DNA of 61,537 nt. It comes from Amoebophrya sp. A120 (lineage: Eukaryota; Protista; Dinoflagellata). The notes beneath the pieces are model-generated. The model was not told the DNA's origin. It saw only the letters and a list, made by a program, of their open reading frames with translations, and did not search any database. The stretch's first letter is position 1. Every line of letters starts with the position of its first letter. The translations under genes were made by a program, and so were the position numbers. Positions 5,115 through 60,315 of this stretch are shown here, in pieces. The stretch is taken from assembly GCA_905178155.1 (NCBI GenBank), contig CAJINV010000015.1, forward strand, positions 824,390 to 885,926. Direction: 5' to 3'.

Positions 5115-8100
5115 CTAGTTCTCCTGGCGAGGAGCACCTGCTTGATCTACCACCACGTCTGTTTTATCAGCACCACACGCCGCACTCGCGGAGGACGATT
5201 CGTTTTTCGACCCGGCAACTACACCCGTGATGGCCTTGGTCGGAATGTAATTCGGGTTCCTCATGGCAGCCGCCCTTCCTTCCGGATATCAACACAAGCA
5301 AAAGCGTTAGCGTTAACGATTTTTACAGATTGCAGTCATGCATCACGAACATACATGCTATGCATTACAAATGCTGGCACCTTTTTAGATGCATTGCGGC
5401 AATGCATCTAAAAAGGTGCTGAATTTGTGATGCGGCAATGCCGCATTACAAATTCCGTTAACGTTAACACGTTTTCCTGTGATACCGGATACAGGTAAAT
5501 CATGCTTGGATCACGTCGATTCGTTGGCACGCTGGAGTCCCTTTGCGCGACGAAATTCTGCACATCGATGCGCCACGTCTCGAATTGTTTCCTGGTTTGG
5601 AAGTATTTTCTCAGCCTTCATCGCATTTTTTAACTCCAAGTAGTTCAAAACAATGCATATTCAAGTCAAGCTCATACCACAAAAGGAAGCAATGCACTTG
5701 TCACACAAAGCAGCAATGATCCAATGAAGTAACTCTACTTTCGTAAAAATACTTGAAGAATCTCCTCGAGTCGCCCTTTTTCATCAGTGGCGTTCCGTAT
5801 GGAAGCGTCAGGATCGAAATCGTCAAAGTTGAAATGATTTGTCATGCATAAAGTGCAAGACATGAAGCGCCTGTCTTGCCGGGATGGCAAGGGAGGCAGA
5901 TTACAAGCCTAATTAGGGTTTGGGATAGAGCTGCTAACGGAGCATGACAAAAGCAGTCAGTCTTCTGTGCCCGAACAACATGACAAATTGGATTCCGGTG
6001 CTCCATCAAACATTTGTCATGCGCCGCCTAGAAATTGGGCTTCCAACTGGTATCGATTTTATGCATCACAAGTTATTTCAACTTTGACGATTTCAATCCT
6101 GACACTTCCATATTCCTGGCCGGTCCGGTATTTCGAATTCCTGTCCGACGGCGACTCCTGACTGCGCTCTCTGCTCTTCACACAGCTCGCACAATATGCA
6201 ATACAAATTTGTTCTTGCCGTGTGCGACGTACAAAATGCATGTTGACATACTTCTGACTGTATGTAACAAGGAGCTTTGACATGCTGGATAGCTATAGCA
6301 ATGGCTGGATAGCTATACAAGTAGATGAAGACCACGAGTTTACTTGTCATACAAAGTGGTCGGTATTTTTTGTACATGCATCTCCGGCAATAAATTTCCA
6401 TTGGATACACAGCCGCTTGTAGAAGTTTGTCTGCTTGAAAGCACCGACTTCACCGTATCAAAATGAAAAATCCCCCCTCCCCATATCAAAACGGAAATTT
6501 GTGATGCTGATTTGTGGCCACAAATCAGCTTTGTATAGCGGAGAGGAATGGCGGCCAGATCCCCAGGCTAGGTAGGGGCTTATGTGTCTAGTTGTTCAGC
6601 ATGGCAAACGGCTCCCCTTTAGGCCTAACAGCATGAGAAATCGCTTCCATAATGGGGCGGAAGCTTCTGCCCTTGTCTTCTTGCAAGACAGATGTGATTT
6701 GTGGCCTCAAATCCGCAACACAAATTTTCGGAAACATACCTTTTCAATATGGGGAGGGGGGATTTTTCCTCTCAATACACCGGCATACCGCTCCAACTGT
6801 TTTTCTGGATCCAGGGACGCGGTCAGGTTGCTACTGGTCGTCATCGTGCTTTGCGCGTCATCTGGTGTCGTGGGATTTTAGCATGGTGGAGAAAAAAATC
6901 GTACTGACTTTGTCATGTGGAAATGCAAATGAAAAACTGAAAGTGAAAATCTTTTGTCATGTATACCATCCAGCGCAAGGTCTCGCTGCGCAATGGCATC
7001 CCTCCTGTGGTTCCGCTCCGGTCCGCCGTGCATGGTTCTGTTAGTTTGTGTTTGTGGGAATATTTGCCATGCGATACTGCAAGATAAGACGACGGCGCAG
7101 TTTTTCTTGTCATGCAAACCGAACCATGCTCGCTTCTGATTCTGAAGCGCTAGCGTGCCAGCATGAGAAAAAAACTGAAACCAGAAGCTGCTGTCTATAC
7201 TTTGTCTTTTTCTTGCTGGGTTTCTCTAAGACCAAGGACTCAAAAGACGCTGCGTCAGAAGCGGTGGTTGTTCGGTGCCGCTTGGAACCTTGATTCGCAC
7301 TATCGTGGACAAGCAGGCCGCCGATGAACTGATATTGATATTTTCGTGGCCATAGTTTTTTCTTTTTTTCCATAACTCGTGCTTTCATAGTGACCGAGAG
7401 GTAACTAGGAACTCAGAACAGAACTTCCTTTTCATTGTATGTATCTGTTCTTTGGACAATATCTAAATCTCCGTGCTGCATTTGCATGCGTTACGACTAC
7501 ATCAACTGTGCATGCATGCATGAGTCTTCTCCTGACTTAAGATCTTCCGGACATTTTGGAACTTACGGCACCAGAACAAAACAAAGTAAACATCATGCGC
7601 ACAAAAAAAACGAACACTTGGCAGAGCAAAAATTTCAATTTTTTTACCTCCGCGCCCTCCCGTATCGTCGGCGGCACACTGGTTTGTGAAACCATGGGAT
7701 CCATGAAGATGAAAGGCTGTTGCATTCCGGATGATGGCCTCGCTGGCGGAGCAAACATCGGCGGTCCCGGTCGATGACCGTTTAGTTGATTCGCCATCGG
7801 CGCGGCTCCTGCAGCTGCTCCGGAAGAGGTGGCAGAAGAGCTTGCGCAAGACGCGCTGGACGAGCACGAGAAATCAGTTCCCAGTCGTGAAGAAGATGCC
7901 ATTGCTCCTGCGCCCCCGACCTGTTCGGAGGTTGAGGAGGTAGTGCTGGATATGGTTTATCAAATGCAAATATGTCTGGTGTTTTGTCTGGAAGCAAGAC
8001 CTTGGCACAGCACAGCCACAGGGAAAACTTTTTGAAGAAAGAAAAGTAAAAGAGAACTACGTAGATACGCATGTAGAGAGAGATTGAAAGCATGCTATAA

Positions 8101-11100
8101 TGTCCACCGGTGGAACTGACTACTATTACTACTTGTGCTTGCACTTGCGCAACATTACATACAAATTGGGTGCAGTGAACTTCTGCCCACGGGGTCCCGC
8201 AGGCTCTACCAAGTTGCTACGCTGGCCAAAGCGCTAGGCACCTGGGAGCCTGTGGGTGCTCGCGCAGTAGTGTCATGGCCGTGCGAATAGCACACCGTGG
8301 GTGCATGCTCACTACTATTCGCTGACACTACTACCGTTCATGACCCTCTCCCCAAATGCGCATTCGAAAATAGTTAAGCTAAGAACTATCACAGCGCTCG
8401 AGTAAGGAAAAGGATCGTTACGAGCAAGAGCTTAATTAAAATAGATCAATGATTTTATACGGAAAATTTTTTTGTGACATGGAACACATGGGAAAACCTG
8501 CGTGACAAGTCTTGCAATGTTCCAGACCCAGACATACTTGCAATGCGTATGGTTTTGTTACTCACCATGCTCGAAGACAGGTTTTTGTTCTGGTCCATTA
8601 CAAGACTCGCTAACGCCGCGGTGGTGAGCTTGTTGGTTTCTGACGAGACGGATGATTGGTGTTCCACTTGGTAAGGACCCGCCTGAGAGACTACAGCATC
8701 ATGACCTCCTCCCGAAGTTGTGCCGGAGTTGCATTGGTCTTCCGTTCCCTCTTTCAGCTTCTTTTTCTGCGCCCAGACTGGGTGGAGCCTGTTCTCTTCC
8801 GCAGGTCTTGCTGCTGCGGCGGTGGTCGTGTTCTTCTGGTTCTCCTCCTCGGGATGCTGTTGAACTTCTAGGTCCGTGGACAACAGCGGCACTTTCGTAT
8901 TGAAATTCACAGGAGGGGCACAAGAAATACCTGCCGCACCACCAGCACCCAAAGCCGGAAATTCGTTTTCACTTTTAATATCCACGGGTGGTTTCTGGAT
9001 CATTTCCGGCTTTAATTCCTCCGTGATCTTTTCCCCGGTCGCCGCGAGCCGCAGTTTCAGCTCGTTCTCGTCCGTTTTTCGTAAATACTGCTCACACTCC
9101 CGCTGAAACACCGACCCGGGCGTTGCCAGCGCGGACACGGCCTGGTGCAGATTTGGTGGCATGAAGATGGGTTGGTCGCTGTCAAAGGTCGCAATGTCGA
9201 AATCAGGCGGGATCCAGATCTTTTCGTTGTTCAGCGCGATCAGAACCCCATCGCCGGTTTTTCGGGCGGTGAGCAGGGCCTTCTTCATTTCCTGTCTCAC
9301 TTCGTGCGGGATGAAAACCTGGTTGTGGAAAAGCGGATTGAGCTCGCCGGTTTCCTTATTTTCTGGCATCGCTGAACAAGAGGAAATAGAGGAACAGTTG
9401 CTCTGGTTCAAGAGACTGTGGTTGTAGCAGCTGCTGCTCGCGTTACTGCTGGCTCCAGAGATGTCAGAAGAAGCAGCTGCCCCCTTACGCTTCATTTTTC
9501 TTCCTCTTCGCGACGAAGATTCGACTGATTGCGGACCGGAAGAACAAGAACCTCCGGGGAAATTCTGGTCATTCGGGAAAAACATCATACCTCCTGGCGC
9601 ATTGTTTACTCCCAGTAACTGGTCGAAAGAGAGGAGGCTGCTGTCAACGCCACTTGCAGTGCCATTGTTTATTCCCCAGTGCGAAGTAGATCCTGCGCCG
9701 TTCTGTGGCCAGTTGAAACTGAAATTCTCCACGGAGTTGTTGTCAGATGCACCCCCAAACCCGGAAATAGAGGAGCAGTTGTCGCTGCCGTTTTCAAGGG
9801 AGCTGATATCAAACATGTCGTCAATTTCCGAATTGTTGCTGTTCACCGTGTTTTGCCGTCGAAGATCAGCTGCCCCAGCACCGTTAGGATCCTGATCTCC
9901 TCCGGCCGTATTCGTGCTGCTGGTGTCGCGGCCTCCGGGATTGATACTATCACTCGGCAGCGGGATCAGCTGCCCGGCCGCGATAAGGGCCGCGAGATCC
10001 TCGGGGCTTTGCTCAACTGCGGGTCTGTCGGCGCTACAAGAAGTGGACAACTTCATTTCCACATCTATGCTGTCAGCTGGCGGCGGTGGCGTTTTGCTGA
10101 GTGAGGAACTAGAATTCATGCCAGTTGCAGTGCTATCGCATGCAGCTCCTGCACCCGGCTGCTGCATAGAGCCCCCTGGAGGCCCTGCTCCGAACTCTGA
10201 ACTGGTACTAGTATTGTGATCCACCGCACTGACGGGCGTAACCGTGGTCATTGTCGTCGTGTGGTTTGCGGTCGGCATCTTATGCAATGCAAAAGCATCG
10301 TACTCGTAGTATTAATCGCAGATATGCATTACAAATACAAATCTCAACCCAAAAGTAAAACAGCATAACAAATCCTATTTCTCATGCTGAGCACATTTGC
10401 ATTGCAATTTATACTAGGAGACCACTACGATGTTTTTGCAAATCATACATCTGCAGGTCCAACAAGTTTTCCATGCGCAGCCCGTTGCTCGCGCCCGGGC
10501 ACCCGTTGAAGGAAAAGTCGTTTTCTTCCTTGAATAGAGACAGAGACTCGGAAGATGACATGAAGGATTTCTGCAACAGATTTTCTTTCCCGACGGTTTT
10601 GTTAAAAAACTCGCTGATTGGCTTGTTCAGATCCGCGTCTATTATCGTGGAAAAACTCGTGTCAAAAACGCCAGCCGGAAGCGGGTTGTTCTGACCTTGC
10701 TGGAGGTCGTACTGCTGATGGCCGTTCGTACTAGCGCTAAAGGCCTGCTCGTTGCTGTTGTGCGAAGGAGCGTTATTATTGTTGCTCATCCCCGCAGCAC
10801 TACTACTGGGTGAAGCAACTAGTCTCCCGAAGTTCCGCATCATCTTGTGATGCTCGATTTTTTGCGCGATCAAGTCCGGCCCGCCGCCGACAATGTCTTG
10901 CACTACCTCCGGGGGCAGTGTGTGAAACGTCGCCGGCTGGACGTGGACGTACAGCTGCTGTTGACCGGTTCCCGAGGAAAAATCTGCTCCTCCAGGTCCG
11001 CCCTTGCATGGATTTTCGCCTTTCTTGCCCGCGGCCCCTTTGCTCGATTTGGATTTTCCCTTGCCCTTCACAGCTTGTTTCCCAGCAGCACCGTCATGTT

Positions 11101-13850
11101 GACTACTCGCGGCTGCAATCGCGGTAGAAGAGGCAAAGTCATTACCGCCTTTGCCCTTTGACTGCGACCCTTGCTTTGCTTGCTTTGTCCCCTGTTTGTA
11201 CCCCTTGCTGTACCCCGCGGCTTTGCTCCAAAACAGGAGCTGCTGATCTGGCGGTATGGCCATAGAAGCACCGTCGCCTCTCGCAAACATAACCTGCTGC
11301 TGCTTGTTCCCCTTCTGCTGCTGCCGCTCCACGAAAGCGAAAGCTTCTTCGATCGCGCTCGTTGTTTCATGATCCACAGATGGTGTTCCGGCGTTGTTCA
11401 TGCTGTGAGGACCAGCGGGTGGGTTTTTTGGCCTGCGCCTGCCCCGCTTTTTCGCTTTCTTGCCAATCGGGTCTTGTTGTCCTGAAATGTTCATCATTTC
11501 AGAATCACCTGGCTCTACTTGAGATGTCGTTTCGTTTCGATCGTTTTGTTCGTCTTGTTGATCTCTTGACGAACCCAGGCTGATATCATCGTCGTCTTCC
11601 TCTCCCGCTTCGCTCGTGTGGTCCAGGGAAAGGTCTTCGACGTCTTGTATGTTGTCATCTACGAGGACAGGAGCGCTCTGCTCAGCAACCCCGTTCTGTT
11701 GGTGTTGCAGTTGCTTATCCACTACGGCGCCGTTCTGCAGCTGCTCAGCCTGTAGTTTATTTCCTCGTGCCCGCTCGGCTTCGGGCACGGCCCCTGCTAC
11801 CTTTTTCTTTTCCTTCGAAGCTGTGGTGGAGGAAGACGAGGAAGAGCTGCTGGACGATGTGGTCTTGACTAGCGAATGTTGCAACATTGCTTTGTCAACT
11901 ACATCAGGGTCCACTTCCTCGTGCTCCTTGTTTACTTCCGCTCCTGCACTAGTCCTTGACAACGCTGACAAACTGCTTGCCGGTGGCCGTGCGGTGCTTG
12001 TCTTTGATGTGTTCAACATCTCGGTTTTTGATCTACTTACCGGCTGGTCTTCACGTGGTCGAACAAGCTGCAAAGAACCGACACTACTTGTCGTCTTTCC
12101 GTTCATCGACGCAGCATCCGCCGCCCCTGCAACTGCGCTGCCATTCGACCTAGCGTTATTCATTGCCGCAGAGGACGAGCTGCTAGAAGACGACGAACTT
12201 CCGCCATTTTGCCGCTGCTTTGACGCAGCTGAAGCTACCACCTGGTGCAAGGTTCCTGCTTTGTTCGCACTGCTATTCGCTTGCTCCTGCTCCACATCCG
12301 AAGTGGATGAGGTTTTGTTATCCCGGTCCCTGACAAAGTCCGGCGACGCCTGAAGCAGCTGAATCCGCGTGGAAACCCGCTTTTTTCGCTCCATGCCAGA
12401 TGTTTTTGCATCTGGACGCTGGGCGCAATCAGGGCCGTCCTCTTTGGCTTTCGCGACGGCGACTACACCGTTTGCGGTCAGAGACGCAGTGCCAGCTCGC
12501 GATTTCCTTGCGACGCCGGATTTTCGTGCGGCCGCAACTTGCGCAGAGGCGGGCTCATCTGATGTTTTGAAGTGGTTTTGCCATGCGATATTGCTTCTAC
12601 TGCATCATATTGTCATTTTTCATTGAAATGAATCGACGCCATACTTTAATCATTAATTTTGGACTTGTTCGGACGCTAACACGACATGACTCTCGCATCC
12701 TTTACCTCCTCCCACCCCCGAATTCATATTCAAATCGGACGCCGCGCCGCCCCCTGCTGCCACCACTTCTGTCACGGAATCCTTCCTCTGCCGTTTTTTC
12801 ATCGGCCGGAGGAGCTTCTTACCCGTAACCTTGTCTTCCCCGAAGCACTCGAGCCGCTCCTGGGAACAGGCGTACTGGGGATTTTCGGTGCAGAGGGAAG
12901 AGAAGTCCGCGTTTGTGGTCGGTGGTCGGGCTTCGTCTTGTTGCCGTATTTTTGCGGGGAGGCCCTGAGGTAATTGAATTTTTGGACGTTTCATTTTTTT
13001 CCTGACGTGAATCGATGCACACGATGGATGTGTGTCACTATCTGTACGCATAGCCAGCCAGAGCTATGTCTAGATGAGTGCTATGGTACCATTTGTGCCG
13101 CCCCACTATTTGAATTATTCTCCGCTTCCGCAATTTCCTTCTTTCGCATTTTGACGGCCATCTTCAGCCTCTTCATCGGCTTCATCTCCCCATGCCCCGC
13201 TGACCCGTTGCTCGCCCCTGGATCCAGGCTCTTCAGAGCCTGCTGCATGCTCCGCTGCGAGTTTTCCACTTCGGACAAGGGCGCGTTTTGGTACGAATGG
13301 TCATCCGGGCGGATAAGGGGTGCACCAGCACGGAGGTGCTTTTTCGTAGTTTTGTTTCCCGACAGAGCATATGCTACGCAAAAGTATCGCATTCGCAATT
13401 ACAGATCTGCATGACAAATTGCCTTCCTAAGCATACGCTAAAAGTAAAACAGAATTACAAATTCCATCTATCATGCCAAGCACATGTGTAATGCAATCTG
13501 TACTAGTACAGTACGATACTTTTGCATTGCATAGAACACCGTTGTTATTGTTGTCACTTGACGTGCTGTCATCCTCATCGTCTTCGCTAAAGTCGTATGA
13601 AAGTGCACAACTCCCCCTCCCCCTCATTTGAATGCAAAATCCCAAATCCAGCTGCTGCCTTGTAGCACTGTTTGCATGACAAATCCTGGAAGCCCAAAGA
13701 GCACTACAATCCAGTGCAAATTTGTCACGCAAAACCGACGCTCTTGCGGATGCTTGTATTGCCGTTCATACTATACAAATGAGGGGGAGGGAGAGTTGTG
13801 CATTGTCATAAGTCGGCCCAGCGCCGACCGCGAACGGGGACAGCCGTCAT
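5115..13850 (-). CDS. Multi-exon hypothetical low-complexity (S/G/Q/N-rich) protein; 8 introners plus short conventional introns
   Basis: Starts MTAVPVRGRRWADFSEDDED at 13850. Removing elements at 13596, 13370, 10281 and 7958 joins frames (e.g. DLQ-MPTAN, NKT-ISSTTS). The 3' block 6880-5115 joins across elements 6456, 6195, 5798 and 5287 to stop TAG at 5115-5117. Links at 12600-13090 and 6880-7647 are unresolved, so this could be two genes. Confidence 0.65.
5287..5484. mobile_element. Introner family F (198 nt), non-canonical intron
   Basis: TAT..ATA ends, TIR containing CGTTAACG, DR CCGGA/CCGGA. Excision gives YLYP-EGRA in frame. Confidence 0.85.
5798..6112. mobile_element. Introner family E (315 nt)
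   Basis: ~38-bp TIR TATGGAAGYGTCAGGATYGAAATCGTCAAAGTTGAAAT, DR TTCCG/TTCCT. Confidence 0.9.
6195..6407. mobile_element. Introner family I (213 nt, diverged)
   Basis: TATGCAATACAAATTT..AAATTTCCATTGGATA, DR CACAA/CACAG. Frame KRL-CELCEE restored. Confidence 0.75.
6456..6777. mobile_element. Introner family D (322 nt)
   Basis: TIR containing GAAAAATCCCCCCTCCCCATAT, DR CACCG/CACCG. Confidence 0.9.
7958..8549. mobile_element. Introner family C, expanded to 592 nt by internal cargo
   Basis: TIR TATCAAATGCAAATATGTCTGG / CCAGACATACTTGCAATGCGTA, DR TGGTT/TGGTT. Excision joins ORF 8455-10287 to ORF 7537-7902 in frame. Confidence 0.8.
8168..8346. ncRNA. Candidate structured RNA (three-way junction) nested in an introner; family unknown
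   Basis: Closing stem GGGT..TGAAC/GTTCA..ACCC. Arm 1 CCCAC/GTGGG + AGGCTC/GAGCCT. Arm 2 GTAGTGTCA/TGACACTAC + GCGAATAG/CTATTCGC. Folded by eye only. Confidence 0.35.
10281..10447. mobile_element. Introner family A (167 nt)
   Basis: TIR TATGCAATGCAAAAGCATCGTA, DR CATCT/CATCT. Joins ORFs 10409-12394 and 8455-10287 in frame. Confidence 0.9.
13370..13533. mobile_element. Introner family A (164 nt)
   Basis: TIR ..GCAAAAGTATCG, DR GAGCA/GAACA. Frame restored. Confidence 0.85.
13596..13810. mobile_element. Introner family B (215 nt)
   Basis: ~35-bp TIR TATGA..GTGCACAACTCYCYCTCCCCCTCATTTG, DR AGTCG/AGTCG. Frame WAD-FSEDD restored. Confidence 0.9.
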
Positions 13851-17042: not shown

Positions 17043-17153
17043 GTATTAGATCATAATCTCGCTGTCCCCCGGTCGGTTCATCAATATTATACGATTTGCG
17101 CTTGCAATTCTTCCTCGATGCGCATCCACATGCACAACACCTTGCACGAGAGA

Positions 17154-19553: not shown

Positions 19554-22500
19554 TCACAGCCCCTCCTCGTCCTCCTCCACCATTGCGTCGGGGATGATTC
19601 CGAACCTGCAGTTGACCAAAACAAAGGGAAAAACCAGCTTATCCCGACTGGAGTCGTACACGCCCCGCACCCGGTCGGCGTCCGTCATCAAAAAACCCGT
19701 TTCTGCCTCTGATAACGGCATCCAGTGGTGGCCTCGCTGCAGCTTGTTGCGCATGCGCTGTCGCTTCAGCATGCGGGCGTTGGTGTCAGTGGTAGCGGTA
19801 GGTGGTGGAGGGGGGATGGCAGTTGTAGCATTCATCCCAGCCGTTTGCGGAGTGGGGGACGAGGAAGCCGAAGCTGCGTGCTGTTGTGCAAATGATCCTC
19901 CTGCAGCTCCGCCTGCTGAAAGATAGTTGTTCTGATGCAGCTCTACCACCTTACTGCTCGATGACATCAAGTACACTGGGTAGGGTTCTGCTTCGAACGC
20001 CGTGACTTGGCTGTCGTGGTTGGAAAATTTCAGGTCCTTCGGGATGTTATGCATTGCAAAAGTATCGTACTAGTATAAATTGCAATACAAATTGACTCAG
20101 CATTACAAATTGAATTTGTAATGCGGATTTGCCTTTAGAAAAAGATTTGTAACGCATGAAAGCAATTAGTACGAGTACGATGCTTTTGCACAGGATAGAT
20201 GTTCACCAGTTTCGCGATCGAGTCGCGAATCTTGACTGCGTTTGAGGAGACAAGGCCTGCTCCGGTAGAGGAAGAGGGGTGATTGACGTTCTTGTTCCCC
20301 AGGTTGATGTAGTTCGATGTTTCTTCAGCAGAAGAAAAATCCTCAGCATCCTCGACCCCAGAGGAGTTGTCTTCGCGCACTGTGACAAACCGAGAGGATG
20401 TTGCGGTGGTCTTGTTCGTTCTTGTTCCGGCGCAAGATGGTCTCGAGGACGAGACCTCAGCTGCGGCATTTATTTTCCCTGTGGTTTTCTTTCGGGGTGA
20501 AGTGTGTGGAGGAGCGGAGCGGTCGTCGTACTGAGATCCTGTTACATCAAGTGCACTTCCTCCATGAGCTCGACCAGTTGCTGTGCCACCTGTTGAACTA
20601 GTCCCTAGCAGGAGTGAGCTGCACTTCTTCAGCTTATCCCTGGGCACATTCTTCCCCCCTGTCCACAGCAGGTTGCTGATGAACACCAAGCACTCCGGCA
20701 GGTCGTTCGCACAGGACACCGCCCTGACCGCCGTCGTCGGCACGTTCTCCTTCATAATTGCGTGTCGCCACAAGCCCCTGATCGTTCCCACGTGGTTCAA
20801 GCTGTGTAAACCACCAATCGCAAACACGAACGCGCGACTCGCGAAAACGGTCTGCATGAGAGAGAGCAACAATTTGGACAAATTATTCGTGATATGCAAT
20901 TGCACATTTTTCAGCAGCAACTCCAACTCCGCGGCGCATTCGCTGATCCGCTGCTCCAGAATCGTCGCCTGTGGGGTGCCATTCGCCGCGGAGTATAAGC
21001 TGTGTCTGCAAACGAGGGTCTTCAGTAATTCCTGCTGTTCCGGCGTACCGGAGTTCATTTCCGCCTCCGCCTTCCAAAAATTCGCGTTTCCCTGGGAGTA
21101 TCCCAATATGAAATGCAAAAGCATCGTACTAGTATAAATCGCATGAAAAATTCCCGCAGCATGACGAATAAAATTTGTAATGCGGATTTCCCTTAAGAAA
21201 AAGATTTGTAATGCATGACTGCGATTACTACGAGTACGATACTTTTGCAATGCATACCCAACCAGGCCCAGCAGTGCTTCCGGTTTCGGAGCGGTTTCAG
21301 CTGCGTCTGACGCTCGATCTCGCTGCCGCTTTCTAGTAGTGTTGTGTGGTCTTCGTGTAATTGATGTTCTTCATCAGGCGTGCTCCTGTAGTTCTCGTTC
21401 AGCGACAGTGCAGCGGATGATGTGTCTGTGTCAGTGGCATTAACATTATTCCCGTCTCCCGCTCGTTCTTCTTGCCGCAAGTGCGCCACAATCGCTTTCT
21501 GAATCTGCGACGAGTTGTACTCTAAGTGCCGCGCGGTTCCGGTGTCCGCCCGGACAATTTTACAGCCGAATTCTTGCATCAACCGCGCGAAGGTGCTCTC
21601 CATCTCCTTTCCCTCTGCCCCCTCGGTAATGACACCCATGGCAGTGATCAGGGAAAAGTGCTGCAGATCGCAGTTTTTGTTCGTGTTCTTCTTCTTCGCT
21701 GTTTCGTTTCCAATTTCAAACCCGTACAACAGAAAGCTCAGTGGGTCGGCCTGCATGGCTATTCTGTCCTCCTCGTAGAAATAGGTGACATGGATGATAT
21801 CGAAGAGCAGACACAGGAGACCACTGGTGCCGATTTTATTGGAAGAGGATGGTGCTTGTGACAGCAAAGCTTCCAGATTTGACGAACTGTTTTTCGTGGT
21901 CGTCCTCGTTGATGCGTTATGCTGCTCCATCGCCGCTTTTGCGTTGTCAACGTACTCGAAGAACTGCTTATACCACTTTGCTGCAAAAGAGCCACCTCCT
22001 TCCGACTGTACTGCTGGTCCCTTCGGATCCTTATCCTCTCTGGAAGCTCCCGCTGGCAGTGCTGAAGCCGATGCCGGTGTCGTGGGTGGTCCTGTTAATG
22101 CTCGTCCGCGAGGTTCTTCACTCTTCCGAGAATTATCCGCCTCAAGAACGTCACCCCTATTCAACGTCACTTGCGTCACGAGCCATATGGAAGTGTCAGA
22201 ATCGAAATCGACAAAACAAAATCGATGCCAGTTAGAGCCTCAGTTTCCAAGTGCCGCATGAGAAATTTCGGGAGCACCCAAATCCAGTCTCTCATGCTGT
22301 TTGGGCAAAGAAGACTGCTCCTGTCATGCTACTCGGGCAGCACATTGCTTAGCCCTAAACAGGCTTGCAATCGGCCCCATTTGCCTGTTCCCCAATACAG
22401 GCCTTGCGTGCCCTACATTTTATGCATTACAAATTTTTCGACTTTGTCGTTTTCGATTCTGACACTCCCATAAGCCACTGCCTAACCGTTTCCACGTTTT

Positions 22501-45757: not shown

Positions 45758-46206
45758 ATTCTTCGAGAAAATATTTTGCAATTGTAGACGTAAATTACAA
45801 CAAATAAAGGTCAAGATCGGTACGTCGAAACGCCTAGACAAATTTCGATCATAACAAATAGAGTCGATGTGAAATCATTTTTTCTATAATAATTGCAAAA
45901 CTACTTTTGCAGCAAGACAAATGGCGCGCATCAATTTTTTCCACGAGTTGTAGCGGATTGATTCATCATGCCGAATCCGCAAGACAGAAACGGCCTGTTA
46001 TGCAGATTCCACAAGTCACCAAATTTCCACTTTACTCAAACCCGCCCTTGTTGCGGTACGCGTACTTCTCCGGGTCGGGGTATGGATTGCAACTCGCTGA
46101 TTCTTGTTCTGGACTTTGTAGTCATGCGAAATAAACACGGATCAGAAACAGAATACCAACTTCTCATGCGCCATGACAAAGACTGAACAACAAGAACTCG
46201 GTAATA

Positions 46207-48450
46207 TTACTTAGTTTCTGTTTCATAAAAACCCGTCCGGTCTGCTATGAGATTCTCAAACGTTACACTCTCAACTGTTGCATGATTTGTCACGCAAAAC
46301 TAGCACTATCATCTACACGATCAAGCTGCTCTGCATGACAAATTCTGGACGAATGGCCAATTAGGCTGATAATCTGTGCCAAATCTGTCATGCAAGACGC
46401 GCCATGCCCCCTCTTCATTTTTCCCATTCTTGCATCACAAATCCATGTAACAGTTGAGAATGTAACATTTGAGAGCGCCATATCTGCCCAGCGCGGCGTC
46501 GAAGACGGAGAGTTTTCCTTCCCGGAGTATGAAAGGAAAGCGAGAAGTTTGTAATGCTGAGGCAGAAGTAGGACAGAGAGTTTGTCTTTTTTGTCATGCG
46601 TACAACGCAGGAGCTGAAAGCTTGTCATGCCAGCCTCGCAATACAAATTTATTTTTTCTCGTCTCTTTTCATAAACCGCTTCATGTAGGGGTCGGTGAAG
46701 GACCACTTGTTTTTGTACTTTTCCACCATGTCCAAGCTTATGGAACCGGAAAATTTCTTTGTCATGCGGAATGATCATGACAGCACGCATTGCAACTCAT
46801 ATAAACAAGTTTGTAATGCAGAGATACCATATGCAAGCATAAGCAACGTGTGCGTTATTTCCCCCATGACAAATCCAAATCGCTTGCATTTATTTCCTCT
46901 TTGTTCTTTGTCATGCGAGAAAGAACCCATGATGACACGAGTCGCAACTACTGAAGATACGACTTTGTAATGCAGGGACACCATATGAATGCAAGGCGCG
47001 TTTGCGTTTCCCGCATGACAAATCATTTTACTCTTCCTACTATCGAACTCGGACTCGTACTCCGGCGGTTTCATCGTGCGCGGATCCGCGTGGGCGGAGT
47101 GCTGATTTGATCAGATTTGATGTCATGCATCCAGCACAAGGATGAAAAATCATATCTGTCATGCACGCCTCTGCATGAGGAACAAAAACAAAATCAACTT
47201 TTATACCGTCTGACTCTTGTAGTACTCGTCCTTGGGACCCAGGTCGTCGCGCTTGTAGGTGTCAATGTCCCGAATCTTCGTGTTGGAATCGATCATTTCC
47301 TTGGCTATCAAATGCAAAAATGTCTGGGTCTGGATGGTTCTTTCCAGGTTTGTCATGCATGTTTTGCATGACCCATCCCATCATGCCTGTGATGCATAAC
47401 CTGGCATCACTGATTTTTAGAGGGTGAGGGATTCCTGATGCCTATTCTGCATGAGAAATGCCCTCCCCTTGTACAACAAACTGGACTTCCTTTGCTCCTC
47501 ATGCAATACAGATTTTTTTCGAATATAATTCGAAGACAACATCACAAGTTACAATCTTCCAGACCCAGACACTTCTGCATTTGATATTGGCGGCAAATTC
47601 ACCATACCCGGAGTTTGTCGTCGTGAGGAGTATGCATACGGAGATTTTCTTCTTTCTATCATGCCGTTCTTGACGCGCATCACAAATAGACACGACTTCA
47701 TGTTCATTTTCTTGGAATGGGTGCTCTGCATGACAAACCCGGTCTGCGTCTGAGATGCATCAGCAGACATGCTATGTCGAGTTGAAAAAGAAAATCTCTG
47801 TTCATCCATAAACGTCGAAGCGGCTTTCCCAGGCAAGGAGTACAACTTCCGCACACGGTAGTCGTGCTGAAACTGCTTGTCCATCCTGATTTGTCATGCA
47901 ATTTTGCAATGATAGAGTATGCCTGTCATGCTCCCACGCATGAGAAATAAGAGAAACATCATTCATTGCGAAACGATTTAGTGTTGCATCAGTTTTACCT
48001 ATAATTTGCCATGCATTTTTCCAGCGCAAACAGCACCATCACCACATCAATAACCTTACCGTTTGTCTACCCAGGGACCGACCAGCGTGTGTCCGCTGTA
48101 AATCGCCTTTTATCCTGAGTAAAAACGTACCCACACCAGAGTCAGGATGGGGATTTTGCAACACAAACCTAGGAGTTTTGTGAGTCACGCATGACAAGTT
48201 GCACTCTGCAGTGTAGTGCAGGTTAGCAAGTGCAGCCGCGTCACAGATTCATCTGCTCATCCTGTTCACAGCATCACAAATTCCAAAACACGATTGGCAA
48301 TGGCTCTCGTGGGGATACGCATTACAAGTCTTCCTGTCTTTGCAAATCTGCATTACAACTCTGGTGTGGGTACGTTTTTACTCAGGATACCTTTTTCAGC
48401 TTCATCTGCGTGTCAGTCAGCTTCGCAGGCTCCTGTGCTTGGTTCGGCAT
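46207..48450 (-). CDS. Small multi-exon protein resembling NWE-motif ciliary microtubule inner proteins
   Basis: Spliced N-terminus MPNQAQEPAKLTDTQMKLKKAIYSGHTLVGPWVDKR resembles YSxxTLxGNWxExR. Later exons TTTNSGYGEFAAKEMID..., ...WADRTGFYETETK*. Several internal junctions are unresolved. Confidence 0.55.
46246..46482. mobile_element. Introner family G (237 nt, reverse orientation)
   Basis: Family G TIR, DR TCTGC/TCTGC. Confidence 0.9.
46528..46673. mobile_element. Introner family M (146 nt), DR decayed
   Basis: TIR TATGAAAGGAAAGCGAGAA / TTCTCGTCTCTTTTCATA. Flanks CGGAG/AACCG do not match. Confidence 0.6.
47306..47586. mobile_element. Introner family C (281 nt)
   Basis: TIR TATCAAATGCARAARTGTCTGGGTCTGGA, DR TTGGC/TTGGC. 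Confidence 0.92.
48111..48389. mobile_element. Introner family L (279 nt)
   Basis: Perfect 32-bp TIR TATCCTGAGTAAAAACGTACCCACACCAGAGT, DR CCTTT/CCTTT. The only copy that can be read as GT-AG. Confidence 0.93.
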
Positions 48451-50675: not shown

Positions 50676-52469
50676 CTACCGTCGTTTCCGCACCGCCGTC
50701 TTCTTTCCTCCCTGAGCTGCGCGCAACTTCTGCAATTTCACAGACGCTTTGTTCGTCTTCGCACTTTTATTCCCCTTGTTCAACGCCTCTTCTTTCTCTT
50801 TCTTACACGTTAACTTGAACAGCTCACTCGCCTTCTGCGGGCAAATCTCGCGCCTCACAGTGAAGTCCTGCTTTTTGAAGATCGATTTATTGGTTCCACT
50901 ACCTCCGCCCCGAATTTTCCGCAACAGCTTTTCCGCACGGGAGGTCTTCGCAGGACCAGAAGTACTACTACTAGGCGCTTGAGCTGTCGCCAATGCCGTC
51001 GCAGTGCCCGCAGTAGTACCAGCAGCAGCGGATGAGAAAATCGACTTCATCGGTCCTCCAGCACCTCCTGGTGCTGTTCCTGCTGAAGAGAAAATGCTCC
51101 CCGGCGCAGGCGTCGTGAAAATAGAAGCGGTTGCATTTCCTGTGCTGGACGAAGGGTTCGACTTCATCAAAAAACCATTCGCACTACTAGCACTGGTAGC
51201 CCCCGGTGTTTTCCCCTCCAAGACGAATTCCTTCAACTCCTTTTCAAATTCCTCCAATTGCGCAAAGGACGCTTTAAACATGGTGTTCCCGGCGTTCTTA
51301 TGCATTGCAAAAGTATCGTACTAGTATAAATTGCATTACAAATTGACTTAGCATTACAAATTAAATTTGTAATGCTGATTTACCTTGAAAAATAAATTTG
51401 TAATGCAGAAATGCAATTACTACGAGTACGATACTTTTGCAGAGGATAGTTCTCCTTCACCTTCAGCCTCGCGGTTTTCGCCAGTTTGCAGTGGTTGACG
51501 AGAAATTCGGCGCACTTCTTCTGCATCTCCGGGTGACGGACCCAGCCGAACCGCAGGGACGCCTGCCGCTGCCGTTGGTCGAGCAACTGCAAGGTCATTT
51601 CCGCCCCATTGTACCCCACATCCAGGAGCTGATTTTTGCTGGTTGTATTTGGTTTATTTCCAATTGCAGCCGTAGTGCTGCGGCCCCCACCACCAAACAT
51701 GAAAGACAGCGCATCGCTCGGTGTTGGTTGTGCTGTTGCGGTACCATTTGCATTTGTTGCACTTGCTCCTCCTCCTGGAGCAGCTTTACTGGTCTTTGTT
51801 CCGCTTGGTGCGCCCGTCTCCTTGGCGTGCTTCTTGCCCTCCGACAAGTCTTGGCAAACCGCCTGCGTTATGGAGTTCTCAAGCGTTACATTCTCCTCTG
51901 TTACATGAATTTGTCATGCAAAACTACCATCATCATCCACAAGATCAAGCTGCTTCGCATGACAAATTTGCGAAGGGCTACACACCACCTAAATCTGTGC
52001 GGGATTGGTAATGCAATTTTTGCAATCTTCCTCCTTTGGCTTTTGCCATTCTTGCATTACAGATTCATGTAACAGTTGAGAATGTAACGTTTGAGAACAC
52101 CATATGCGTCAGATCGCTGTTCCGAAACTGCTCGCCTAATTTCTTCTTGTTGGAAGAGGTGGCAGTTGAGTTTTTGCTTTGCTTCCCTTTTATATTCGTG
52201 ACAGAGGAAGAGGAGGTCTTCTTCTTATTTGTAGTCCCCTTGGAGGTCGTGGCTCCAACGGTTGCTCCGGTCGTGGAAGAAGATTTGTTATTCATCATCT
52301 TCATTTTCTTGGTTCCACCACCCGCGGCGGCTCGTCCAGCTCCGGGCGCTGCCATGGATAAACCTGCTTTTGGCAATTTTTCAATGAACTTTTGTAGTCG
52401 GAGAAAGTGGTACTGCTTCTGGTCGCTCAACTTGTTGTATTTACTTCTTACTTCTTCCGGTGACAACAT
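50676..52469 (-). CDS. Hypothetical Lys-rich basic protein (~465 aa), 2 introners
   Basis: ORFs 52065-52472, 51380-51847 and 50676-51305 join in frame (DLT-QAVC, KEN-AGN); spliced length 1398 nt. Confidence 0.8.
51299..51448. mobile_element. Introner family A (150 nt)
   Basis: Family A TIR, DR GTTCT/GTTCT. Confidence 0.92.
51869..52104. mobile_element. Introner family G (236 nt, reverse orientation)
   Basis: Family G TIR, DR TGCGT/TGCGT. Confidence 0.92.
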
Positions 52470-54724: not shown

Positions 54725-54991
54725 TATCAAGTGCAAAAATGTCTGGCTCTGGAAAAGTGTAAACTTGTCATGCAGATTCTCCATGACCCATGAGGTGTGG
54801 AATGCGGGGCTTAGCCTGACAGACTCTGCGGGGTCTCTTCCATGCCTATCCTGCATGAGAAACTGCCTTCCATCTTGGTCAAAAGTGGACAGCTTTGGGC
54901 ACTCATGCAACACAGATTTTTGCATGCTTCAGAATTACCATGACAAGTTGCAACCTTCCAGAACCAGACCCAGACATATTTGCATTTGATA
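54725..54991. mobile_element. Introner family C (267 nt) in a duplicated 3'-UTR-like segment
   Basis: Family C TIR, flanks CCACT/CACT. Absent from the paralogous site near 56880. Confidence 0.8.
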
Positions 54992-55138
54992 CACTCTAGC
55001 TCTTACATCTCATACTCATCCCGCCTTTCCATTCCGTTATGGGTACTGCTTCCATCCCGCCTTTCCAATCCGTAGTCGGAGAAAGTGGTACTGCTTCTGG
55101 TCGCTCAACTTGTTGTATTTACTTCTTACTTCTTCCCG

Positions 55139-55445
55139 TATGGAAGTGTCAGAATCGAAATTAACAAAATCGAAATAATTTGCGATGCATAAAATGTAGG
55201 GCACTGGAGGCCTGTATTGGGGAGCAGGCAAATGAGACCGATTGTAGGCCTGTTTAGGGGTATACAATGTGCTGCCAGAGTAGCATGACAGGAGGACTCT
55301 ACTTTGCTGAAATAGCATGACAGACTGGATTTGAGTGCTCCCAAAATTTGCCACGCGCCAATTGGAAACTGAGGCTCCAACTGACATCGATTTTGTGCAT
55401 CGCAAATTTTTCGACTTTGTCAATTTCGATTCTGACACTTCCATA
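55139..55445. mobile_element. Introner family E (307 nt), close paralog of the 59918 copy
   Basis: Family E TIR, DR TCCCG/GCCCG. Confidence 0.9.
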
Positions 55446-55486
55446 GCCCGCCCGAAAATTGTAGAGGCGAAGGCTCGCGAGCTTTT

Positions 55487-55775
55487 TATCCTGTGCAAAA
55501 GTGTCGCACTCGTATTGCAATCATGCATTAGAGTGGGGTAACAAACCTCCTGCAGGTAGTTGCCGGCCAACTTCTCATCCACCCGGCCGGGTGGATGAGA
55601 AGTTGGCTTGGTTGGCGTGTCCGCGTCACCCGCCCACCCGGCTCCGTCCAAAAAAAAATTTGTAATACAAATTTTTTTCTGAAGCTAAATTCGCATATAC
55701 AAATTTTATTTCTCATGCTGAGGAAATTCGTAATGCTAATGCATTTATACGAGTACGATACTTTTGCAGTGCATA
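55487..55775. mobile_element. Introner family A (289 nt) with a nested ~135-nt insert
   Basis: Family A TIR, DR CTTTT/CTTTT. The insert carries a 42-bp perfect palindrome at 55566-55607. Confidence 0.85.
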
Positions 55776-56887
55776 CTTTTTCGCCGGGGACAACTTCAGT
55801 AGGAAGCTGGGAACGGGGTCGCCGGACTTCGAAAGCCAGCACCCGCCACTCTTCAGCTGGAAGTTTGCGATACTCGGAGAAAGTGGTACTGCTTCTGCTC
55901 GCTCAACTTGTTGTATTTACTTCTTACTTCTTCCGGTGACAACTTTCGCTTTCCAGTGCAACTTTCGCTTTCCAGCTAAAAATGTAGTATGAAACTTCGT
56001 TCATCAACATCAAATGCTGCAACTTTCCAGTTCAAAATTTTTCAAGCCGTTGTGAACTTGCCTACTTGCACTTGCCTGATCCTGGACATGGAAAAACAAC
56101 ATAGACATGAATAAATTTTTGCACGACAAAGTGGATCAAAACGAGCACCGGTAACCATTATGGGCTGCATATTTTAGAAGATAAACGGAAAGGAACATCA
56201 TAATTTCATGAAGGTCTTCTTCTTCGTAGGATTTACGTACAAGATTATGATTACAGATCAATGCGATGGTCATTTGTTCGCATGATTGGCGGGCCCAGAG
56301 ACGGTCCATCGATTATCTTGTCCCGAATTATATCACAAGCAATTCAGATCCTCGTATTTCCTATGTGTTGTACTAATGGCATTCTTATCCACCATGAAGA
56401 TTGTTTGTTGATCCAGCATCATTTAAGTGCATTTATTTTCACCAGTGAGTTGGAACAACTACGTCCGCTTTATTCGAGATGAACATCGATGGAGTGCAAC
56501 GCTCATCATTTCATCAGTAGGGTCACGGCCCGTCGTTCTTCTAATCTAGGCTCAACATAACGAGCAAGGGTGAGGAACAGGATCATGAAAGGAAGCCACG
56601 TCCTTTGTTTCTTTTTGCTTTTATTTTCGCGCTTGTTCCCAATCATGATCATTTTTTAAAGTTGTTCATACACTTCTTGCTTTATCAAATGCTTATTGTT
56701 CCGTCGTGGAGTAGATGTTTTTGTTTCAGTAGGTAACTGTGCTGCTTCAAAATCAGATTCATCAGAAATTACAAATCAGATGGAGGCTCACGACCAGGAC
56801 GTCGATTCATAGCACCGACGTGTAGGACTAGGAACTTTTCGTCCGCAGGACCAACAACTCGAAGATGAACAACTCCACCTCCACTTC

Positions 56888-59800
56888 TCACATCTCATAC
56901 TCATCCCGCCTTTCCATTCCGCCGCGGGGAAGCTGATCCATGGATAGCTTTCGGTCTTCTTGTCCACCTCCGTCGCCATAGAAGGAAGATGCTGATGAAG
57001 TTCCAGCTTCCTCCTTCCCGACTCCGGATAATTGTTCTCTCGCACTTGCACTTGGTGGGCCACCTTTTCCTTTGGATTTTGTTCCACCTTTCATCGACGC
57101 TTTAGTATTGGTCTTTCCCTGCTCGTTGTCGCGATCTTCATCAACTCGTCGCGACCGTCGTCCAGCTTGTGGCTCTTGATTCACGACAGTTGCAGGAACA
57201 GCCGTGGAGCTGCTCGCCGTGTTGTTCGCTTTTTGCTGAGAAGAGAGCGAAGATGGTGGTCCTCCTGGTCGCGCTAACGGTGTTCCTGATGTTGTTCCGT
57301 CTCGACTTCCACCTTGCTTGTTTATTTTACCTTCCTCCAGTGCGCGATCTTGTTCCGAAAGAGCTCTACTTCTGCGACTGGGAACGAGGGCGTCGATCTG
57401 CAGATCGAAGACTTGCAGCACGTGCCCCGCTCCAGCGCCCAAGCGGAATTCTAATGCCACGTTTTCGGTGGTCCCTTTCGCTCCGAGCTTGTTCAAAAAG
57501 TTGAGACTCCCAGTGCTGACGCCGTTGGGGTCTGTGTGCGGCATCCATCCGTCGCACCCCGTGATGACGTGGACCTGCCGCTCTCGGGTTTTCGGCGCAG
57601 GCTCGATGCGGACCAGGTTATTGGAGTAGATACCATCGGCATCGTAAGAAAAAAGTGCTACACTTACACCTTTCTCATGCAAGAGCGGCAACACAGACAA
57701 CCTTTCTCATGCAGGAAATGCTTAGGAGCCTCGTTTCCTTCCTGTTTTCTCTTATGATCTTCGCGTTACAAGTTTTCTCTGCCACGCAGAGAAAATTTGT
57801 GATGCGGAAACTCCAACAAGTGTGTAACTGTATATACTTTTTTCTCATGATAATCGGCTGTCATGCGCTTGATCTGCAAGGATCCCTTGGATTCGCCCCA
57901 TCCCTGGTCTTTCCAATCGATATACACGCGGATGGCGACCACCTTCTGCGTGTAAGAAAACGTGGTTACGTTATGGGACTCTCAAATGTTACATTCTCAA
58001 CTGTTACATGAGTTTGTAATGCTAGAAGAGCAAAAGTCAAAGGGGGAGGGTTGCGCCTCTAGCATTACAAATTCCGCACAGATTTCAATGCTGTTTAGCC
58101 CTTCGGGAATTTGGCATGCGAAGTCGCTTCACAATGTGAATCGAATGATGATGTTAGTTTTGCATGACAAATCGTGTAACAGTTGAGAATGTAACGCTTG
58201 AGAACGCCATATACGTACTGCAAGAGGTCGAAATCGTCGGAAAACGGGGGTCCGTTCCGGTTATGGCGTTCTCAAACGTTACATTCTCAACTGTTCCATG
58301 GATTTGTAATGCAAGAACAGCAACAGCAAAAGTGGCAATATTGCAGCTTTCGCATCACAGATTTGCCGCAGATTATCATGCTGCTTGGCCCTTCGAAAAT
58401 TTGTCACGCTAAGCACCTTGATCAAGTGGATGCTGATAGCAGTTTTGCATGACAAATCCGTGTAACAGTTGAGAATGTAACAGTTGAGATGAACGCCATA
58501 CCGGTACAACGGTGCTTGCGACCAGCGGAATATCTCATGGGTGTACTTAGAGGCCTCGTACAGGTCTTCCTTGTTGGCCACACCTGACGTGCTTAGAAGA
58601 TCGGCGGCCACATCTTCTAGAACTTGAATCCCACAGACCGCTATTTGCTCCGTCGTCGCCTGGCCTAGGCGGCTTTATCAAATGCAAAAATGTCTGGGTC
58701 TGGGAGAACTTGTGATGCTGTCTCTGGATTCGAAAAAGATTTGTATTGCATGACCAGTAAGAGGAGTAGATTTTGTGCTCCGCGGAAATGGCATTTGTCA
58801 TGCGGAATAGGCATGAGGAAGCGCTCTAAAAATCTGTGATGCTACGGCATGCATCACAGACATCATGGGTCATGGAAAATATGCATGACAAATCTAGATT
58901 TTGTTGTTGAAATCTTCCAGACCCAGGCATTTTTACAGTTGATAGGCTTTGGTCCCAGGCAATCCGGACACTCTCCGCCTGGTTGAGGGAAGGTATTTCG
59001 GTCAGGGGAATGTCTACAAAGCGGTAGTTATCGTCGTACAAATTCTCCAACGGGCCGGGTACTCGATTGCTCTCACTGGGATCCAGTATTGCCTGAAAAT
59101 TAACCATCCCCATCCACTTTTTGCATGACAGACACAGAATTTTATACATGTTTTGCATGACAAATTGGATGGGGATGGTTAATTTTCAGGGAATATCCAG
59201 GCTGCCAACCTGATGACCCGTGCCGACCATGTATCAAAATGAAAAACCCCCCCTCCCCATATCGAAACGAGATCTGTGATGCTGGATTTGCGCACACGCA
59301 TCAGATTTGTCTTGCTGAAGGGGACGGCAGGCCTACGTCAAGCCTGAGTAGAGAGGTTTTGGCGTAGGCGCTTAGCATGAGAAACGTCCGCGCTTTGGGC
59401 CAAACCGCATTACAAACCGCCTCCATAATGCGGCGGAGCCTGTGGAGTTGCCGTCTTGCAAGACAGAGATGATATGTGGTCGCAAATCAGCATTGCAAAT
59501 TTTCTGCGACGTACTTACCTTTTCGATATGGGGAGGGGGGATTTTTCCTTACGATACCAGGCACGGCGCGCTCCCCACACCCGACCCCGCCGCGCAAATC
59601 TGCACTATGGGAAGATTCTCAAACGTTACATCCTCAAACAATAATGCAAGAATGGCAAAAGTGAAAGGAGGAAGACGAAGATTTTTTTTGCGCCTTTTGC
59701 ATTACAGATTTCATCGGACGGATAATTCTAGTGCTATTTAGCGCGTCGAGAAGTTGTCATGCGAAGAAGGATTGATGTAGTTGATCGTGTGAAGAGTGAT

Positions 59801-60264
59801 AGTGCTTTATTTGCATGACAAATCATGTAAGAACGGTTGAGAATGTAAGAACGTTTGAGAACGCCATATCCACGTAAGCATTCTTGTACCACAGGGACTT
59901 GACCGGTTCGACGCCCGTATGGAAGTGTCAGAATCGAAATTGACAAAATCAAAATAATTTGTGAAGCATAAAATGCAGGGCACTGGAGGCATGTATTGGG
60001 GAGCAGGCAAATGAGACCGATTGTAAGCCTGTTTAGGGAATGCAATGTGCTGCCAGAGTAGCATGACAGGAGCACTCTACTTTGCTGAAGTAGCATGACA
60101 GACTGGATTTGGATGCTCCCAAAATTTGTCATGCACCACTTGGAAACTGAGGCTCCAACTGACATCGATTTTGTGCATCACAAATTTTTCGACTTTGTGA
60201 ATTTCGATTCTGACACTTCCATAGCCCGCCCGAAAATTGTAGAGGCGAAGGCTCGCGAGCTTTT
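56888..60264 (-). CDS. Multi-exon hypothetical protein with a WKDQGWGxxKG...GAGAGH domain; 5' end missing or disrupted
   Basis: Seven introner excisions give a continuous frame KLASLRLYNFRAG-VEPVKSLWYKNAYV-..-SLD-PSES..WDQS-RLG..LYR-NGPP..LQYV-TTFSYTQKVVAIRVYIDWKDQGWGESKG. The junction at 57660-57860 is unresolved. Confidence 0.7.
57972..58211. mobile_element. Introner family G (240 nt)
   Basis: Family G TIR, DR TACGT/TACGT. Confidence 0.92.
58262..58500. mobile_element. Introner family G (239 nt)
   Basis: Family G TIR, DR CCGGT/CCGGT. Confidence 0.92.
58676..58944. mobile_element. Introner family C (269 nt)
   Basis: Family C TIR, DR GGCTT/GGCTT. Confidence 0.9.
59087..59195. mobile_element. 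Introner family J (109 nt)
   Basis: 30-bp TIR TATTSCCTGAAAATTAACCATCCCCATCCA (1 mismatch), DR TCCAG/TCCAG. Confidence 0.92.
59232..59556. mobile_element. Introner family D (325 nt)
   Basis: Family D TIR, DR CCATG/CCAGG. Confidence 0.9.
59606..59868. mobile_element. Introner family G (263 nt)
   Basis: Family G TIR, DR TGCAC/TCCAC. Confidence 0.88.
59918..60223. mobile_element. Introner family E (306 nt)
   Basis: Family E TIR, DR GCCCG/GCCCG. Confidence 0.92.
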
Positions 60265-60315
60265 TATGCATTGCAAATATGTCTGGGTCTGGAAGAATGC
60301 AACTTGTCATGCTGA
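60265..60315. mobile_element. Introner family C, single end (truncated)
   Basis: TATGCATTGCAAATATGTCTGGGTCTGGAAG with no partner TIR in the window. Confidence 0.7.

Follow-up and report, generated by a model that had tools for sequence, protein, structure and literature searches.

The subject of this analysis is a 61,537-nt stretch of the genome of the marine algal parasite Amoebophrya sp. A120 (the window, to whose full length all coordinates refer), which is densely populated with short, transposon-derived introns. These elements are excised exactly at the RNA level and kept in the DNA, and a single cut register fits every junction examined: on the transcript, written 5'-N-TAT...ATA-NNNN-3', the intron begins 1 nt before the TAT and ends 4 nt after the ATA (hereafter 1+4). 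The original prediction had linked the elements to the introners of Amoebophrya, correctly so, as the window belongs to strain A120, the source of the introner element (IE) class of Farhat et al. 2021 (PMC7789003; this and the other publications cited are drawn upon for part of their content). The element class itself is therefore already published, and what was not found in print is the fixed register, the dispensable repeat, the invariance of U at +2 with an unused AG, and a shared internal motif. No statement of the fixed register or of the shared motif was found in the literature searched, the figures of Farhat et al. 2021 (3, S19-S25) and subscription papers lying outside its scope.

A total of 46 elements were recognized, comprising 42 with terminal inverted repeats (TIRs; 5287-60223), located by searching for inverted ends flanked by repeats, and four without a direct repeat (DR), added from RNA joints (46081, 46528, 46739 and 47631); a truncated copy at 60265-60317 is additional to these. 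Element length ranged from 109 to 592 bp (median 238 bp; 10,854 bp summed). Across the 92 ends, T was found at position 1 in 91, A at position 2 in all 92 and T at position 3 in 89, with A at positions 11-14 in 65-81 ends, which fits TAT followed by seven variable nucleotides and a run of As. The predicted TAT and ATA ends, with exceptions GTA at 8549 and CTA at 25538, were correct, and two further exceptions came to light (CAT at 57640 and CTA at 47039). The 5-nt DRs are, as had also been claimed, without a common sequence, in that all 42 left copies differ from each other; the repeat was exact in 33 of the 42 TIR elements, carried one mismatch in eight and was shifted in one, whilst over all 46 elements at least four of five bases matched in 41 and little or nothing in five. 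Structures with TAT...ATA ends, an exact DR and at least 9/14 TIR matches numbered 29 in the window versus a mean of 0.13 (maximum 1) in 30 dinucleotide shuffles. Grouping at 60-65% interior identity gave 16-19 groups, six of them multi-copy, so that the multiplicity of families stands whilst the earlier figure of about 13 gives way to a count that shifts with the threshold. The elements have inserted with a 5-bp target duplication, and in both orientations. No transposase-bearing autonomous copy was found in the window or in the metagenome loci described below, which yielded three longer candidates only, and an Rfam search returned no match.

Deletion of each element together with 5 nt produced an open frame of 3535 codons spanning 15 elements, and further open frames spanning 8, 2, 2, 2 and 2 elements, upholding the claim that removal of an element and one DR restores the frame. 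If retained, 43 of the 46 elements would shift the frame or have stops in all three frames. Intron phases were even (9, 9 and 12). A second data set consisted of 132 metagenome loci from a related assembly, which were chosen by the end of one family and are thus biased; these loci and the window share element families. Within them, an exact 5-nt repeat flanked 239 of 366 TAT...ATA hairpins, repeats of 3, 4, 6 and 7 nt being found 4, 0, 0 and 0 times, and coding-like frames resulted for 171 of 350 copies when the element length plus 5 nt was removed, as against 47-62 with other lengths. None of the 132 loci was orthologous to the window, hence no empty sites were obtained.

Removal from RNA was evident in contigs of runs X3-X6, which originate from a single study and whose RNA nature was guessed by program; these cover exons and skip two GT-AG introns and at least 14 elements exactly, counting the joints among those listed. 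The skipped form was the main contig in every RNA-like run covering the site, and a 13-nt microexon (46229-46241) between two non-canonical introns was included in 4/4 runs. One joint, 52456/55447, was re-read as 55134/55447, its 30-nt side being duplicated. A raw-read RNA run, X9, placed only four reads on the window. The DNA-like contigs, all from run X1 and hence from one stage sampled, had an even coverage of about 48 over genes, introns and intergenic DNA, and ran unbroken and without differences over element borders and all four DR-less introns at a depth of 44-48; X1 may be the source of the published assembly. Support for the 46 elements consisted of an RNA joint in 14 (among the joints listed), an annotated protein only in 14 and frame alone in 18. 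Annotated proteins skip 8/8 elements at 57640-59918 and 8/8 at 5287-13596; of these proteins, P0002 maps across 13850-5118 with zero unmatched residues, and an annotated A120 protein is 100% identical to exon 56891-57631. The RNA joints and the P0002 mapping thereby bear out the prediction that excision is exact without GT-AG sites, alongside GT-AG introns in the same transcripts. The intron at 43426-43489, which had been cited as an ordinary GT-AG intron, has the ends and frame of one, with no RNA junction shown.

The register is fixed by those junctions in which a direct repeat does not allow the cut to slide. Three strictly non-slidable introns permit one cut only, and all three were cut at 1+4 (TAT or TAG start); of the remainder of the 14 junctions, the choice narrows to 0+5 or 1+4 in two, 0+5 is ruled out in one, and eight are compatible with 1+4. 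Annotated residues at three mismatched DRs are likewise consistent with it. The four DR-less introns likewise leave the RNA at 1+4, so excision does not need the direct repeat. The +1 base and the last four bases are also free: donors at 1+4 were AT in 14 elements, GT in 12, CT in 11 and TT in nine, such that T occupies +2 in 46/46 and G occupies +1 in only 12/46, and the AG acceptor of U2-type introns was present at 1+4 in only 2/46, hence neither G+1 nor AG is needed. Sliding was predicted to give a GT-AG intron on the coding strand only for the copy at 48111, and this held, the copy reading GT-AG at 1+4 and at no other slide; the cut that would make 54725 GT-AG is excluded by RNA, and the copies at 41464, 10281 and 46246 can be slid to GA-AG or AT-AG. 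Among 170 metagenome copies with a confident strand, codon likelihood over the 53 with mismatched repeats peaked at 1+4 in 82% of bootstraps. In Table S4 of Farhat et al. 2021 (PMC7789003), within the part of that paper considered, the top non-canonical pairs start NT in 9/9 cases for A120 and TT in 9/9 for strain A25. The A25 inverted repeat starts TTA and its top donors are all TT, so A25 may share an xTA donor core in which the element supplies +1.

The original prediction held that excision is positioned by the terminal hairpin rather than by splice-site nucleotides. Positioning relative to the element ends was confirmed; the hairpin alone is too strong a claim, because intron 46077-46228 is skipped with no predicted end-to-end stem (z -0.5, pairing probability 0.05). 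All 42 DR-bearing copies fold strongly end-to-end (z -3.5 to -15.3, 12 shuffles each) and three of the four DR-less copies moderately (z -2.6 to -4.1), terminal pairing being predicted in 45/46 elements and absent in 46081; the fourth end position is unpaired in 13/46. Among 14 oriented variant ends (10 from the loci and 4 from the window), U+2 was changed in none, +3 in one, +4 in six and the 3' ATA in seven, five further variant ends having no strand call. Three related copies end ACA, breaking the middle TAT/ATA pair, their splicing being deduced from frame only. All eight GT-AG introns listed begin with GTA and share +2/+3 with the introners. The ends thus work as both stem and sequence, and the TAT falls on donor positions +2 to +4. 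Three unrelated DR-less introns (46524-46674, 47627-47811 and 46077-46228) share a TTATG start and a CATAC(T/C)CC end, which may be a preferred signal.

An internal motif, GCATnACAAAT, recurs in nearly all groups, at about four copies per element and in both orientations. A motif matrix trained on these elements gave 192 hits in their 10.9 kb versus 28 in the remaining 50.7 kb, and GCATGAC occurred 61 times in elements versus three in twice as much exon. The motif was 10-fold enriched in the metagenome loci and present in 353 of 366 elements there. With one copy per family, the distance from the motif to the end it points at was periodic at 10.55 nt in the window (p 0.0014) and, in the metagenome loci, at 9.9 nt (p 0.009), both close to a turn of the DNA helix; spacing between motif copies showed no clear period with one copy per family, and a helical period for copies pointing away from the end was not supported per family. 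The motif is kept in 4/4 DR-less introns and in 5/9 other introns examined, four GT-AG introns being without it. It is likely to be a DNA-binding site, probably that of the transposase. Its candidacy as a required branch point was rejected, because the sense copy is absent from three spliced copies (59087, 47631 and 48111).

As to how the introns are removed, we lean with modest confidence towards an altered U2-type spliceosome that removes short TAT...ATA transposon copies at the fixed 1+4 register. The copies would have been inserted by a DDE-type transposase reading the shared motif; N-UAU would be taken as the donor core and AUA would lie near the 3' end, and since the ends are inverted repeats, either orientation would offer both. 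End pairing, long in young copies and down to 4 bp in an old one, may replace U1 pairing and AG recognition, with the acceptor measured 4 nt from the base of the end stem. As 1+4 equals the 5-bp duplication, any new insertion would be spliced scarlessly whatever the target sequence. Farhat et al. 2021 (PMC7789003) report 83/89 spliceosomal proteins together with U2, U4, U5 and U6, and no U1, in A120. Several points weigh against this reading. No branch point was identified, and structurally similar Euglena introns were reported as circles and read as non-spliceosomal (PMC12621601). U+2 and A+3 are also the terminal bases of the transposon, so that transposition rather than splicing may keep them constant in young copies, and only the four DR-less introns and 14 variant ends bear on selection for splicing. 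The strictly non-slidable junctions number only three and belong to a single gene; a single study supplied all the RNA, as contigs of program-guessed nature; all window gene models lie on one (minus) strand; and the codon-likelihood test is weak, with sign tests at p ~0.08.

A possible, if doubtful, alternative retains the same register and assigns the cuts to a structure-guided endonuclease and an RNA ligase acting at the stem base with 1-nt and 4-nt overhangs, as proposed for Euglena and diplonemids. The strong end hairpins of 42/42 DR-bearing copies and 3/4 DR-less ones suit it, as do the dispensability of both G+1 and AG, the comparable Euglena code 5'-N3CDG...CH'G N5-6/R (PMC12501133) and the U1 not found in A120 (PMC7789003), but 46077-46228 is efficiently skipped without a predicted terminal stem, the fourth end position is unpaired in 13/46, the ACA-ending copies break the middle pair, and the 5' cut falls exactly at the place of a GT donor. 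It is improbable that the cutting machinery is brought in during transcription by a DNA mark or by an end-binding protein on the TAT ends and the phased GCATnACAAAT sites: the presence of the motif, in either orientation, in almost every element of every group, its end phasing and its retention in the DR-less introns and in over half of the other introns would be expected, yet a transposase binding site gives the same pattern, four GT-AG introns lack the motif, the data sets share families, copies show no clear period between them, and no protein was identified. A related and only marginally less improbable notion is that a transposon end-recognition code was turned into a splicing code, a motif- or TAT-binding protein marking DNA or nascent RNA and directing 1+4 without U1 or AG and perhaps without a lariat. 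Ciliate internal eliminated sequences (IESs) have TA-bounded ends and a transposon origin, and the present elements resemble them in both, with DNA from one run only; even so, IES-like excision from DNA in some life stage is very improbable, given that X1 contigs continue across element borders and read through each of the four DR-less introns and that the published assembly retains the elements, whilst IESs would be absent from expressed DNA. Template-switch artefacts typically show a hairpin together with a short direct repeat, and reverse-transcriptase switching across the hairpin between direct repeats could mimic excision; it is scarcely credible here, since the four repeat-less introns are skipped at the same register, 43/46 elements break the protein if kept, and in every covering run the main contig lacks the element. 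The combination of skipping in RNA with retention in DNA thus argues against both DNA-level loss (in the stage sampled) and template switching.

Against this background, the altered spliceosome at 1+4 can be compared with known systems. The A120 IEs of Farhat et al. 2021 (PMC7789003) agree with the present elements in strain and in all defining features: an inverted-repeat motif of TAT, 7 nt and AAA, 3-5 nt repeats, a hairpin, many families and removal at non-GT-AG sites, about 65% of introns being non-canonical. That paper, in the parts considered, gives splice positions relative to the hairpin as variable or unknown (legend of Fig. 3; 1-5 nt in that of Fig. S23) with no clear signature, whereas one register, a dispensable repeat and a family-linking motif were found here. 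The A120 families were elsewhere classed as TIR elements with mostly non-canonical sites (PMC12130899), and other Amoebophrya were shown to be canonical (PMC12005148). The non-conventional introns found in Euglena (PMC12501133) and in hemistasiid diplonemids (PMC12621601) are similar in that their ends pair over a short stretch set at a constant distance from each cut, their terminal bases are free, the rule is masked by junctions that can slide, and GT-AG introns coexist with them; however, the Euglena code N3-CDG...CH'G-N5-6/R differs from N1-TAT...ATA-N4, the Euglena signature being absent here, no purine rule follows the acceptor (purine in 26/46), and the donor keeps the spliceosomal U+2/A+3. 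Fritillaria borealis has introns derived from miniature inverted-repeat transposable elements, with TIRs and target duplications and no GT-AG, attributed to an adapted U2 spliceosome; these prefer ends AG-AC and AG-AT, whereas both terminal positions are free here (summarised in PMC11282704). Introners of Micromonas, Aureococcus, Symbiodinium and Polarella are likewise non-autonomous TIR transposons in which splicing removes one target duplication (PMC11282704; 10.1101/2020.10.14.339549), but they carry or co-opt GT/GC/GA and AG in a target-dependent manner, in contrast to the unconstrained target and even phases of the window; the part of the preprint 10.1101/2020.10.14.339549 considered does not mention Amoebophrya. 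IS3EU/GingerRoot transposons (PMC10045372) share TA...TA termini with the elements, yet their target duplication is usually 6 bp, a length absent from the metagenome hairpins.

Positions of the elements, of associated GT-AG introns and of the truncated copy in the window (families A to F with approximate lengths at first mention; DR, direct repeat; ORF, open reading frame)
Feature	Position	Strand	Evidence
Introner, single copy in window, DR CCGGA	5287..5484	-	skipped in P0002
Introner family C (~305 bp), DR one mismatch	5798..6112	-	P0002
Introner, single, DR one mismatch, begins TAT+motif	6195..6407	-	P0002
Introner family D (~322 bp)	6456..6777	-	P0002
Introner, family-E ends, long interior, coding 5' end TAC	7958..8549	-	P0002
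Introner family A (~150 bp)	10281..10447	-	P0002
Introner family A, DR one mismatch, upstream DR copy kept in protein	13370..13533	-	P0002
Introner, single in window	13596..13810	-	P0002
Introner family A	20048..20197	-	frame of 3535-codon ORF
Introner family A	21107..21256	-	frame
Introner family C	22186..22472	-	frame
Introner family A	22558..22707	-	frame
Introner family A	23116..23279	-	frame
Introner family C	23317..23623	-	frame
Introner family E (~265 bp), DR one mismatch	24115..24369	-	frame
Introner family A, coding 5' end TAG	25386..25538	-	frame
Introner family B (~240 bp)	27297..27547	-	frame
Introner, single in window	28258..28569	-	frame
Introner, single in window	28636..28795	-	frame
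Introner family A	29620..29768	-	frame
Introner family A (distant)	29833..29983	-	frame
Introner family D, DR one mismatch	31043..31363	-	frame
Introner family A	31399..31554	-	frame
Introner family F (~115 bp), motif copies sense only	33835..33955	-	frame
Introner family D	41464..41789	-	frame
Introner family D	41846..42166	-	frame
Ordinary GT-AG intron, frame-consistent	43426..43489	-	frame
Non-slidable DR-less intron, element 46081-46227, TT..CC, 1+4, no predicted terminal stem	46077..46228	-	RNA joint; present in DNA contig
Introner family B, AT..AG at 1+4	46246..46482	-	RNA joint
Non-slidable DR-less intron, element 46528-46673, TT..CC, 1+4	46524..46674	-	RNA joint
Non-slidable DR-less intron, element 46739-47039, GT..CT, 1+4	46735..47040	-	RNA joint
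Ordinary GT-AG intron, same transcript as introners, motif in sense	47102..47206	-	RNA joint
Introner family E	47306..47586	-	RNA joint
DR-less intron, element 47631-47810, slidable 1 nt, TT..CC at 1+4, motif antisense only	47627..47811	-	RNA joint
Ordinary GT-AG intron, ends motif+CAG	47886..48059	-	RNA joint
Introner reading GT..AG at 1+4, motif antisense only	48111..48389	-	RNA joint
Introner family A	51299..51448	-	RNA joint, 4/4 runs
Introner family B	51869..52104	-	RNA joint, 4/4 runs
Introner family E, shifted DR, register limited to 0+5 or 1+4	54725..54991	-	RNA joint
Introner family C, DR mismatch, register 0+5 excluded	55139..55445	-	RNA joint re-read as 55134/55447
Introner, single in window, GT..AA at 1+4	55487..55775	-	RNA joint
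Introner, coding 3' end ATG	57640..57852	-	RNA joint; P0001
Introner family B	57972..58211	-	RNA joint; P0001
Introner family B	58262..58500	-	P0001
Introner family E	58676..58944	-	P0001
Introner family F, motif antisense only	59087..59195	-	P0001
Introner family D, DR mismatch, annotated Leu compatible with a cut at 0-3	59232..59556	-	P0001
Introner family B, DR mismatch, annotated Glu compatible only with a cut at 0-1	59606..59868	-	P0001
Introner family C	59918..60223	-	P0001
Truncated copy, one family-E end	60265..60317		
Five GT-AG introns (5591-5752, 6862-6966, 7037-7200, 7329-7647, 12965-13089), each within 1 nt	5591..13089	-	P0002 mapping

The gene with the last five GT-AG introns also holds eight introners. 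Within it, at 12560-12705, P0002 implies a 144-nt intron without GT-AG or TAT...ATA ends, which is probably an annotation offset; a 147-nt GT-AG alternative in that position would differ by one residue. The open frame of at least 3535 codons at 19557-33352, with its 15 introners, had no Pfam match in the seven exons scanned and no homologue in a search that covered proteins up to 2985 aa; among 19 proteins, Pfam gave one weak match (PAN_4, in P0001). Gene pieces are duplicated at 54400-56000 and 59918-60317, where 55139-55486 and 59918-60264 match at 328 of 347 aligned bases. The exon at 55776-55871 encodes residues 746-777 of P0001 and sits downstream of the remainder, the window does not contain residues 1-745, and a loose RNA end occurs at 55873; this patchwork may represent a rearrangement, a paralogue or a misassembly. 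The same 41-nt exon end precedes two different elements (55487 and the truncated 60265), and several young-family copies in four metagenome loci (L035, L073, L076 and L115) are flanked by largely mismatched repeats; recombination at old sites may have exchanged element bodies.

Other repeats were also encountered. A different TIR element at 2622-3743, with a 53-bp TIR and the 6-bp repeat CTTCTC, is intergenic, and its longest frame of 126 codons had no Pfam match. A GC-rich repeat at 52836-54100, with a short TIR and a 6-bp repeat, had an X1 depth of 250-350 versus about 48 and no RNA cover. In the metagenome locus L002, a 1.1-kb TAT...ATA element (505-1608) with a 5-bp repeat and a GC-rich interior had no evident transposase frame, as judged by frames without a Pfam scan.

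Farhat et al. 2021 (PMC7789003), in the parts considered, left splicing at a 'broad variability of motifs' with borders unknown, and the fixed 1+4 rule and shared motif sharpen that published question. That paper doubted that a single protein mobilises all the families, as the shared, phased motif suggests. If true, N-TAT...ATA-N4 would reduce tens of thousands of seemingly motif-less introns to one code, would explain harmless insertion anywhere, 1+4 being the 5-bp duplication, and would fix gene prediction for the lineage. The rule would also pinpoint the sites at which to test for lariats, circles and the effect of mutations, and would provide an alveolate parallel to the Euglena code.

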